A stretch of 20,576 nucleotides of DNA from a virus. Taxonomy: Duplodnaviria; Heunggongvirae; Uroviricota; Caudoviricetes. Positions within the stretch are counted from its first letter, which is position 1. Each line of letters opens with the position of its first letter. The notes under the pieces are model-generated. The model was not told the DNA's origin and ran no database searches. It was given only the letters and a program-made list of their open reading frames with translations. The stretch is taken from the IMG/VR virus record IMGVR_UViG_3300045988_110470. One strand, given 5' to 3'. This document shows, piece by piece, positions 3,848 through 6,251 of the stretch. The position numbers and the translations under genes are program-made.

Positions 3848-6095
3848 AGCCTCCGGGCGTTTTGTCCCTCCGTCAGCATTTGCCGCAGGCACCGGTAAGA
3901 TGTTTACCGGTGCTTATGCATGGAACGCGCCACGCGAGGCCCTCGGGCGCGAAAGACCCCTTACACGTGACGAGATGCGTCAGGTGCAAGGTGTTTTATC
4001 CACGATTAACCGCCTGCCTTACTTTTTGCGCTCGCTGTTTACTTCACGCTATGACTACATCCGGCGCAATAAAAGCCCGGTGCACGGGTTTTATTTCCTC
4101 ACATCCACTTTTCAGTGTCGTTTATGGCCGCGCATTGAGCGTGTGAATCAGCGCCATGAAATGAACACCGACGCGTCGTTGCTGTTTCTGGCAGAGCGTG
4201 ACCACTATGCGCGCCTGCCGGGAATGAATGACAAGGAGCTGAAAAAGTTTGCCGCCCGTATCTCATCGCAGCTTTTCATGATGTATGAGGAACTCAGCGA
4301 TGCCTGGGTGGATGCACATGGCGAAAAAGAATCGCTGTTTACGGATGAGGCGCAGGCTCACCTCTATGGTCATGTTGCTGGCGCTGCACGTGCTTTCAAT
4401 ATTTCCCCTCTCTACTGGAAAAAATACCGTAAAGGACAGATGACCACGAGGCAGGCATATTCTGCCATTGCCCGTCTGTTTAACGATGAGTGGTGGACTC
4501 ATCAGCTTAAAGGCCAGCGTATGCGCTGGCATGAGGCGTTACTGATTGCTGTCGGGGAGGTGAATAAAGACCGTTCTCCTTATGCCAGTAAACATGCCAT
4601 TCGTGATGTGCGTGCACGCCGCCAGGCAAATCTGGAATTTCTTAAATCGTGTGACCTTGAAAACAGGGAAACCGGCGAGCGCATCGACCTTATCAGTAAG
4701 GTGATGGGCAGTATTTCTAATCCTGAAATTCGCCGGATGGAGCTGATGAACACCATTGCCGGTATTGAGCGTTACGCCGCCGCAGAGGGTGATGTGGGGA
4801 TGTTTATCACGCTGACCACGCCGTCAAAGTATCACCCGACACGTCAGGTCGCAAAAGGCGAAAGTAAAACCGTCCAGCTTAATCACGGCTGGAATGATGA
4901 GGCATTTAATCCAAAGGATGCGCAGCGTTATCTCTGCCGTATCTGGAGCCTGATGCGCACGGCATTCAAGGATAATGATTTACAGGTCTACGGTTTGCGT
5001 GTCGTCGAGCCACACCACGACGGAACGCCGCACTGGCATATGATGCTTTTTTGTAATCCACGCCAGCGTAACCAGATTATCGAAATCATGCGTCGCTATG
5101 CGCTCAAAGAGGATGGCGACGAAAGAGGAGCCGCGCGAAACCGTTTTCAGGCGAAACACCTTAACCGGGGCGGTGCTGCGGGGTATATCGCGAAATACAT
5201 CTCAAAAAATATCGACGGATATGCACTGGATGGTCAGCTCGATAATGATACCGGCAGACCGCTGAAAGACACTGCCGCGGCTGTTACCGCATGGGCGTCA
5301 ACGTGGCGCATCCCGCAATTTAAAACGGTTGGTCTGCCGACAATGGGGGCTTACCGTGAACTACGCAAATTGCCTCGCGGCGTCAGCATTGCTGATGAGT
5401 TTGACGAGCGCGTCGAGGCTGCACGCGCCGCCGCAGACAGTGGTGATTTTGCGTTGTATATCAGCGCGCAGGGTGGGGCAAATGTCCCGCGCGATTGTCA
5501 GACTGTCAGGGTCGCCCGTAGCCCGTCGGATGACGTTAACGAGTATGAGGAAGAAGTCGAGAGAGTGGTCGGCATTTACGCGCCGCATCTCGGCGCGCGT
5601 CATATTCATATCACCAGAACGACGGACTGGCGCATTGTGCCGAAAGTTCCGGTCGTTGAGCCCTTGACTTTAAAAAGCGGCATCGCCGCGCCTCGGAGTC
5701 CTGTCAATAACTGTGGAAAGCCTGCCAGCAGTGATACTTCGTTACCGGCTCCCACACCTTCAGAGCAAGCCGCAGCGGTGTTAAAGCTGATTGAGCGCGG
5801 GGTTATTGGCTGGAATGAGCCGGACGTCGTGAAGGTGCTTAACGGGGCGTTAAAAGCTGGCGCAACGCGCAAACATCGGCAGCAAAGAAGCAATGCGCCG
5901 CTCAAAACCAGCGAGCAAGCGCCATCAGCCAGAATGAGTAAATATGAAAGAGATCGTATAAAGAAAATTCGATTAGATTTAATGCAGGCTGGGGTTACAC
6001 CTGAACGATGGGAACTCGACGTACTGGCGCGTGGAACAACCATAATTTATGATAGTAAAAAATTTAACTTTCCGACTGATGATGGATGGTCGTGA
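3837..6095 (+). CDS. A: Rolling-circle replication initiator, P2 gpA-like (752 aa from the first ATG)
   Basis: N-terminus MAVKASGRFVPP as I recall for P2 A; HUH-type HWHMML motif and paired active-site tyrosines in GYIAKYISK; the track start at 3795 is TTG. Confidence 0.9.
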   Translation: MAVKASGRFVPPSAFAAGTGKMFTGAYAWNAPREALGRERPLTRDEMRQVQGVLSTINRLPYFLRSLFTSRYDYIRRNKSPVHGFYFLTSTFQCRLWPRIERVNQRHEMNTDASLLFLAERDHYARLPGMNDKELKKFAARISSQLFMMYEELSDAWVDAHGEKESLFTDEAQAHLYGHVAGAARAFNISPLYWKKYRKGQMTTRQAYSAIARLFNDEWWTHQLKGQRMRWHEALLIAVGEVNKDRSPYASKHAIRDVRARRQANLEFLKSCDLENRETGERIDLISKVMGSISNPEIRRMELMNTIAGIERYAAAEGDVGMFITLTTPSKYHPTRQVAKGESKTVQLNHGWNDEAFNPKDAQRYLCRIWSLMRTAFKDNDLQVYGLRVVEPHHDGTPHWHMMLFCNPRQRNQIIEIMRRYALKEDGDERGAARNRFQAKHLNRGGAAGYIAKYISKNIDGYALDGQLDNDTGRPLKDTAAAVTAWASTWRIPQFKTVGLPTMGAYRELRKLPRGVSIADEFDERVEAARAAADSGDFALYISAQGGANVPRDCQTVRVARSPSDDVNEYEEEVERVVGIYAPHLGARHIHITRTTDWRIVPKVPVVEPLTLKSGIAAPRSPVNNCGKPASSDTSLPAPTPSEQAAAVLKLIERGVIGWNEPDVVKVLNGALKAGATRKHRQQRSNAPLKTSEQAPSARMSKYERDRIKKIRLDLMQAGVTPERWELDVLARGTTIIYDSKKFNFPTDDGWS

Positions 6096-6251
6096 ATTTA
6101 ACCAAATGGTGTGCGTATTTATACGTTAATGTTTGATTGTTGGCCTATATTTCTAGAAGTTAAAAACCTTTTGTATGTTGTGCTATTTGCTTGTTTACAG
6201 GTATTTTACGGTACGGGTTACCAAATTTTCTGCAAGTACGAGACTGAAAGC

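Follow-up and report, generated by a model that had tools for sequence, protein, structure and literature searches.

An AT-rich accessory module of a P2-like Escherichia coli prophage whose left edge lies inside replication gene A

The G+C content of replication gene A drops abruptly shortly before its stop codon in the 20,576-nucleotide stretch of DNA analysed here (the window), and to judge from alignments with related phages this step coincides with a true recombination junction inside the gene. We consider it likely that two P2-like phages swapped a module and that the step, at about 5932-5937, marks the left crossover. The AT-rich accessory module that starts there is about 1.15 kb long (5938 to ~7084), and its first part encodes another allele of the C-terminal end of the replication protein. 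The features on which the argument rests are as follows.

265-1278, minus strand: integrase (open reading frame layout)
1394-1693, minus strand: C repressor (open reading frame layout); cox and B come next, then A
3837-6095, plus strand: replication gene A, encoding gpA, an HUH rolling-circle initiator of 752 aa (Pfam Phage_GPA)
5665-5721, plus strand: ori core within A, projected from the P2 'nick site at ori' annotation
5722-5936, plus strand: mosaic segment of A of the EC11/WCHEC005784/IMG-VR L078 type (alignment identities)
5912-5937, plus strand: conserved stretch coding for EQAPSARM, the probable left crossover anchor (alignment)
5938-6095, plus strand: AT-rich allele of the gpA C-terminal mini-domain (G+C 0.38, homology to the P2 gpA tail)
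6096-6251, plus strand: AT-rich spacer of 156 bp between A and the cargo gene (G+C 0.34; 83% identical to the Enterobacter kobei prophage L007)
6252-6977, plus strand: cargo gene, 241 aa, of the uncharacterised family phrog_13198 (open reading frame)
6978-7084, plus strand: right end of the module, from the cargo stop to the conserved cos-proximal DNA (88% identical to L007)
7117-7135, plus strand: cos cohesive end, GGCGAGGCGGGGAAAGCAC, the same as the last 19 nt of P2, annotated there as cosR
7305-8339, minus strand: portal gene Q, adjoining cos, then terminase P, O, N and M (open reading frame layout)

By its gene content the stretch can be assigned to a P2-like (Peduovirus-type) prophage of E. 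coli. Compared with the P2 annotation, its open reading frames follow the order int-C-cox-B-...-A-(variable)-cos-Q-P-O-N-M-L, and the same layout is found in the PGAP-annotated prophage of strain ZH142, which is 99.7% identical to the window. The Pfam family Phage_GPA matches residues 133-462 of the A product (E = 2.7e-122), and from 3937 to about 5720, over some 1.8 kb, the gene shares 98-100% nucleotide identity with A of P2. Through a collinear match (positions 3601-4156 of P2, our locus L001, correspond to 5300-5855 of the window) the annotated P2 nick site, at 3996, projects to about 5695-5697 (GCGCCTCGG/AGTCC), within an ori core that is nearly invariant across six aligned A genes. An antisense open reading frame at 5606-6043 was treated as spurious because it had no PHROG match.

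In 60-nt windows the G+C content lies between 0.50 and 0.60 up to 5890-5949 and between 0.33 and 0.38 from 5920, with a single rebound to 0.55 at 5980-6039, where the GC-rich residues G..P.RWEL..LARG are encoded. A single-step fit over 5300-6600 placed the change point at 5932, with a G+C of 0.575 to the left and 0.383 to the right. Since A spans 3837-6095, the step lies about 53-55 codons upstream of the stop, and the drop near 5930 that the earlier note had described, some 55 codons before the end of A, was thus recovered by both the sliding window and the change point. The final 159 nt of A have a G+C of 0.384; with every 159-nt window of the A body as reference (mean 0.536, sd 0.033, minimum 0.465), z is -4.6. 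The contrast is also found at third codon positions, where the G+C (GC3) is 0.26-0.28 in the tail vs 0.56 in the remaining A, and where the lowest value in any in-frame 53-codon window of the A body is 0.415 vs 0.26 for the tail. Segment by segment, the G+C is 0.539 in the A body, 0.384 in the tail, 0.340 in the spacer, 0.384 in the cargo open reading frame and 0.437 after the cargo; low values persist to about 7080 and then give way to about 0.61 around cos.

A megablast comparison of the window with 50,697 phage records gave matches to other P2-like phages that broke off within A and resumed near cos, the left ends falling at 5855 for P2, Wphi and others, at 5889 for L-413C, P22H1 and HQ103, and at 5937 for pro483, MET_P1_103_31, vB_EcoM-720R8 and GMS190. 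A six-way alignment showed A to be a three-part mosaic, at first of P2 type, then of EC11 type and finally private. From about 5722 the identity to P2 falls to 83% and then to 57%, while that to E. coli EC11, S42 and WCHEC005784 (L003-L005, a second type of A) rises to 85-95%; from 5937 the identity to this second type also falls, to about 70%. The maximum chi-square method put a breakpoint against P2 at 5776, where mismatches go from 2.0% to 36.7%, and one against the E. kobei prophage L007 at 5909, where they go from 23.5% to 7.5%; for neither breakpoint did any of 300 permutations give as extreme a value.

The nearest relative with a different cargo, IMG/VR locus L078, is 93% identical to the window over the 150 nt preceding the drop, and a two-state likelihood scan with match probabilities of 0.95 and 0.65 located the first drop of identity at 5938. 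A junction model with probabilities of 0.93 and 0.40 was discarded; it put the junction 27 nt before the stop and could not separate 72% homeologous from 93% identity. The stretch just before the drop, 5912-5937, is identical or nearly so in the window, L003, L005 and L007. Identity to L007 is likewise 90-92% over 5746-5845, which would allow the shared block to begin further left, with a later patch at 5846-5895. The alignment of A genes across P2-like phages with different cargo thus located the breakpoint at 5937/5938, and together with the chi-square breakpoint against L007 it bears out the proposal of the earlier note that the left junction of the island sits within the A coding sequence.

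The AT-rich tail encodes a recognisable gpA end. Its product, APSARMSKYERDRIKKIRLDLMQAGVTPERWELDVLARGTTIIYDSKKFNFPTDDGWS, aligns without gaps with the gpA C-termini of P2, L-413C and the EC11 type, at 55-66% amino acid identity. The block ER..I..IR.DL.Q.G..P.RWEL..LARG....Y...KF.Y..D.W of the gpA C-terminus is present in it, and the pattern it shares with P2, L-413C and EC11 reads ER..I..IR.DL.Q.G..P.RWEL..LARG.T..Y..KKF.....D.W; it ends 9-11 residues short of P2- and EC11-type gpA and does not have the PGFS...EW. ending. The dN/dS ratio of the tail is 0.29 against L007, 0.23 against L003 and 0.25 against P2, and its dS against tails that do not belong to the module is 0.9-1.4, near saturation, a combination which points to an old divergence. 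At residues conserved with L003, ten third-position differences go toward A or T and one goes toward G or C. The tail is therefore best described, from these alignments, as a diverged and AT-recoded allele of the same gpA C-terminal domain, under purifying selection, and not as foreign sequence.

An AlphaFold2 (AF2) model of the last 113 residues of A (mean pLDDT 74) predicts two helices, a low-confidence stretch at model residues 37-62 and then a helix-helix-hairpin unit. This mini-domain would consist of helices at 63-78 and 85-92 and of strands at 96-99 and 102-105 that form a hairpin (96-105), with block-mean pLDDT values of 77-87. The residues APSARM are model residues 56-61, so that the crossover would fall in the predicted linker ahead of the mini-domain. 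A Foldseek search with the mini-domain returned no informative match.

At the other end of the module, the match to P2 picks up again at about 7085, which leaves some 32 nt to cos, and more than 2,000 E. coli genomes align again from 7079-7089 onward; the earlier note had placed the right boundary of the island near cos, and with a boundary at ~7080-7085 and cos at 7117-7135 this is where we find it. No PADLOC model matched the cargo family (phrog_13198), whose 241-aa member here shows a weak resemblance to the ADP-ribosyltransferase fold.

The closest homologue of the cargo protein outside E. coli (88% amino acid identity) was found in the P2-like prophage L007 of Enterobacter kobei, where the arrangement is as in the window: the A stop, a spacer of about 157 nt and the cargo gene. 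Between the two, nucleotide identity is 78% in the A body, 80% in the mid segment, 91% in the tail, 83% in the spacer, 91% in the cargo gene and 88% after it, and the L007 tail has the same G+C profile as that of the window. With 91% in the tail against 78% in the A body, the tail shares the history of the cargo and not that of the gene body to which it is attached. Of 5,426 complete E. coli genomes, ZH142 and RM8082 alone carry this module, whereas 2,155 share its flanks; further carriers are four IMG/VR contigs and one metagenome contig; the succession of mid segment, tail and cargo is identical (98-100%) in all E. coli, IMG/VR and metagenome carriers. Of 102 tails, 67 have a counterpart that is at least 90% identical and sits beside a different cargo (median 92.5%); for the window class the figure is no more than 72-75%. 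The cargo gene also moves without the tail, as in Klebsiella, Raoultella and metagenome loci (L008, L010, L120 and L121), where A and the cargo are separated by other genes and homology to the window starts at 6224-6350, close to or at the cargo start codon (ATG, 6252). Tail and cargo nevertheless appear to be co-inherited in the sampled lineages. The claim of the earlier note that the tail of A had been exchanged along with the cargo thus stands as far as the shared travel is concerned, but has to be amended as to the nature of the tail, which is a homologous gpA allele and not foreign sequence. A homologous allele under purifying selection suggests that the exchange was homologous or homeologous and took place with another P2-like phage.

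To see how unusual such a junction is, we compared the segment between A and cos/Q, which varies among otherwise similar phages (36 cargo-proximal classes among the 102 full-length tails or loci of a first survey; 51 classes among the 178 loci of a larger set). A usable comparator was available for 45 cargo classes. In 35 of them identity first dropped inside A, at a median of 35 nt before the end of the stop; the drop was at least 60 nt deep in 11 classes and at least 120 nt deep in eight, counts which come from surveys seeded with the window's own tail and in which sparse sampling may overstate the depth for singleton classes. At 158 nt (5938, with the stop at 6095) the window is an unusually deep but not unique case of a general feature, and it is set apart by its fully re-coded domain. 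The median tail GC3 was 0.51 in a collection of 189 full-length tails from GTDB genomes, IMG/VR and metagenomes, and values of 0.35 or less were found only in the window class (0.27) and in a Huaxiibacter locus, L020 (0.30), which is a second, independent AT-rich tail beside a different AT-rich cargo. In the first survey, homologous tails outside the window class had a G+C of about 0.46-0.57 and a GC3 of 0.42-0.62, the exceptions to the usual G+C being L020 and a few intermediate tails (0.42-0.46). Tail GC3 and downstream G+C are weakly correlated (rho = 0.21, p = 0.03), and we make no claim that tails generally track the composition of their cargo.

The extreme C-terminus of gpA, past the D-E-W motif, varies with the downstream cargo: PGFSTVMEWT is found before orf91/DUF3850, SGFWHQFE in 720R8, PGFLLPI in MET_P1 and GWAIV in FSL SP-004. 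In pro483 and in a Kluyvera prophage (L035) A is truncated before the RWEL..LARG block, ending in RIHFELALIGKTYQ directly before the stop, and in a further locus (L032) it diverges after RWELEV.

Scans of GTDB genomes, IMG/VR and metagenomes revealed no donor of the AT-rich tail. A single-peptide scan of GTDB gave no matches, and an alignment-based GTDB scan, whose query included the conserved block upstream of the tail, gave 24 Enterobacteriaceae loci, none above 80-83% and none with an AT-rich A body. Tails recovered from IMG/VR and metagenomes were either of the window type (98-100%) or at most 72% identical, and none of the 189 collected tails fell between 72% and 98% protein identity to that of the window; the E. 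kobei tail (86% amino acid identity) came from a separate cargo look-up and stands outside the 189. Protein homology searches returned one fragment only for a 56-aa tail query and partial gpA fragments for a 140-aa query, at no more than 76% over the full query and up to 87% over 81% of it. No A body with a GC3 below 0.48 was present in the 189-tail collection. The saturated dS and a composition matching that of the cargo suggest a long separate history of the module, either in a P2-like lineage of lower G+C or through prolonged linkage to AT-rich cargo; given that neither a donor nor an A body with a GC3 below 0.48 was found, the part of this reading that concerns a lower-G+C donor is unproven.

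The AT-rich 3′ end of A had also been proposed as the most plausible place for a promoter that would let the cargo be expressed in a lysogen, and this suggestion found no backing. A consensus scan of 5930-6250 detected no sigma-70-like site matching at least 9 of 12 positions, and a relaxed scan detected one 8/12 site (CTGGCG-18-TATGAT at 6024), where shuffled sequences give 2.9 ± 1.8; as far as consensus scans can tell, the sequence gives no positive sign of a promoter in this interval. Manual promoter candidates in the spacer, compared with the upstream regions of L007 and of the Klebsiella and Raoultella loci, were weak, and the best of them (TTGTGC-18-TATTTT) loses its -10 element in L007. 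No plus-strand terminator was predicted between A and the cargo, so that read-through from the early operon is possible, and none was predicted from the cargo stop to cos, a weak site lying past cos at 7139-7154. The spacer RNA is less structured than its shuffles (z = +2.7), and an Rfam search matched no family.

How, then, did the end of A come to be AT-rich? Amino acid content does shape local G+C, since the GC-rich patch at 5980-6039 matches codons for G, P, R, W and A, and the dip could reflect no exchange at all but the usual variation that goes with the K, I, Y, N, D and F residues of the tail. We give this reading almost no credence: in the first survey, homologous tails elsewhere mostly have a G+C of ~0.46-0.57 and a GC3 of 0.42-0.62, a GC3 of 0.35 or less occurs among 189 tails only in the window class and L020, and the z of -4.6 against the A body and the breakpoint statistics also speak against it, so that GC3 and the comparison with homologous tails refute it. 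Another account, in which non-phage DNA overwrote the end of A by illegitimate recombination and left it with an unrelated C-terminus, has precedents in the family, given the truncated A of pro483 and of the Kluyvera prophage and the divergence of L032 after RWELEV. For the window it is highly improbable, and in effect refuted by the protein homology of the tail, which can be matched position by position to gpA of P2 and EC11 along about 52 codons, at 55-66% amino acid identity and with a dN/dS of about 0.25.

A third possibility is that the tail became AT-rich in place, without any transfer, through selection for a regulatory function of the DNA itself, such as a promoter or UP element for the cargo or an H-NS nucleation site. 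The ten-to-one bias of synonymous changes toward A/T would fit, as would the position of the cargo gene, on the same strand, 156 nt downstream and with no terminator between, and the independent AT-rich tail of L020 beside a different AT-rich cargo. However, only the single 8/12 promoter-like site was detected in 5930-6250, below the number given by shuffles, and tail and cargo are equally conserved in L007 (91%), which argues against any extra constraint on the tail. The near-saturated dS, moreover, indicates long separate descent instead of a local sweep, and the sharp breakpoint and the discordance between body (78%) and tail (91%) require recombination anyway. We therefore regard AT enrichment in place as unlikely.

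Under the module swap that we favour, a block of about 1.15 kb (5938 to ~7084) would have been inherited as one unit: the final ~52 codons of A in their AT-rich allelic form, the 156-bp spacer, the 241-aa gene and the roughly 100 bp that follow it. The left exchange would have occurred just past the stretch coding for EQAPSARM, in the predicted flexible linker before the helix-helix-hairpin mini-domain, and the right exchange in conserved DNA about 32 nt left of cos, the conserved flanks presumably having served as homology arms for the two crossovers. As the incoming tail appears to be a working orthologue of the mini-domain, the essential A gene would have stayed intact even though the boundary lies inside it.

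A wider reading, which we hold to be speculative and to have only a small chance of being right, is that the last ~60 codons of gpA form a domain-sized homology arm which, with cos, swaps modules among P2-like phages of hosts that differ in G+C, the AT-rich tail being the footprint of an unsampled low-G+C lineage. In a stronger version, the mini-domain may be functionally matched to its cargo or may carry a signal for cargo expression. The hotspot could also be driven by two breaks that the phage itself makes, the gpA nick at ori (~5695) and the terminase cut at cos; the ori nick sits just left of the first mosaic breakpoint, at ~5722.

The case belongs to the known gpA-gpQ hotspot of P2-like phages, which it refines in an incremental way; it represents no new mechanism or kind of element. 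Rousset et al. 2022 (PMC9122126) reported that this hotspot holds many anti-phage systems and extracted the 'genes located between gpA and gpQ', and a second paper likewise places the hotspot between A and Q. With this hotspot and with the TO region of P2, which contains old, tin and orf91 according to the P2 annotation, the window shares the position from A to cos/Q, the AT-rich variable accessory genes and the right edge at cos. Unlike the published definition, which takes the genes between, its left boundary lies about 53 codons inside A and its module brings a homologous, AT-recoded C-terminal mini-domain of A. The hotspot literature that we covered, which does not extend to what are reportedly the earlier primary papers on the P2 TO region (Nilsson et al. 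2004; Odegrip et al. 2006), makes no mention of a boundary within A.

Mosaic junctions in tailed phages commonly fall at gene or protein-domain boundaries, and the window resembles this general mosaicism in its sharp switch of relatedness at a predicted linker, which would preserve the chimeric protein. What sets it apart is a junction bound to one particular hotspot that recurs, with 35 of the 45 cargo classes showing their first identity drop inside the last codons of A. Lambdoid morons, accessory genes that are AT-rich, lie between phage genes and carry a promoter and a terminator of their own; the window module is like them in being an AT-rich accessory gene in a prophage, presumably useful in the lysogen. 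Consensus scans detected no flanking promoter or terminator, and, unlike a moron, the unit takes in part of an essential gene instead of being a clean intergenic insertion.

The gpA-gpQ hotspot serves as an anchor for mining anti-phage systems, and the pipelines take the genes between. With a boundary that often lies inside A, here by 158 nt, the 3′ end of gpA is no clean conserved anchor. The last mini-domain of gpA would seem to tolerate replacement, here by a recoded domain, and even loss, as in pro483, and this tolerance informs which parts of an essential initiator are needed. It also follows that the true unit of exchange can be mapped, which helps to reconstruct how defence cargo moves between phages.

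The C-terminal mini-domain of gpA, the product of replication gene A, is wholly missing from some P2-like A genes:

L002 (pro483), 2120-2209: A without the C-terminal mini-domain
L035 (Kluyvera intermedia), 3666-3755: A without the C-terminal mini-domain
L032 (another P2-like locus), 3666-3824: A without the C-terminal mini-domain

These products either terminate in ...RIHFELALIGKTYQ directly before the stop (pro483 and L035) or depart after RWELEV (L032), a sequence pattern which suggests that, if the phages concerned are viable, loss of the mini-domain is tolerable. A second, independent AT-rich gpA tail, with homology kept, was found in Huaxiibacter chinensis (L020, 3666-3884; G+C 0.39, GC3 0.30), where the junction lies about 56-60 nt past the start of the conserved APSARM residues and the tail adjoins an AT-rich cargo different from that of the window. 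Among metagenomic protein fragments that cover the C-terminus of gpA, several (including P0131, P0132, P0139 and P0146) are labelled 'large subunit ribosomal protein L30' by JGI, evidently a mis-annotation.

Between A and the cargo gene, the spacer (window 6096-6251) holds no terminator, and its RNA fold is weaker than that of its own shuffles (z = +2.7). A short stretch 5′ of the cargo ATG, TTTnTGCAAGTAnGAGG, occurs both in the window and at the cargo loci of Klebsiella and Raoultella; the ribosome-binding site of the cargo probably lies within it. Further downstream we considered one more reading frame:

7006-7266, plus strand: 86-aa ORF spanning the cos site, matching phrog_17350 (E = 9e-38)

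It is probably no real gene, the family being more likely an artefact made by conserved cos-flanking DNA. Beyond cos, the portal ORF of the window is intact; in the E. coli ZH142 prophage (L006, 8414-10225), which is 99.7% identical to the window, the portal gene is split by an IS1 element and that copy is therefore defective.

When A was compared with that of P2, we found 98-100% identity over about 1.8 kb, stopping about 25 nt past the projected nick site, directly 3′ of the invariant ori core:

5665-5776: stretch holding the invariant ori core and the end of the near-identity to P2
about 5695-5697: projected gpA ori nick site

Since the identity to P2 stops just past the nick, the mosaic and variable stretch is wholly bracketed by the nick that gpA makes and the cut that terminase makes at cos, and we speculate that these two cuts could be the drivers of the hotspot.
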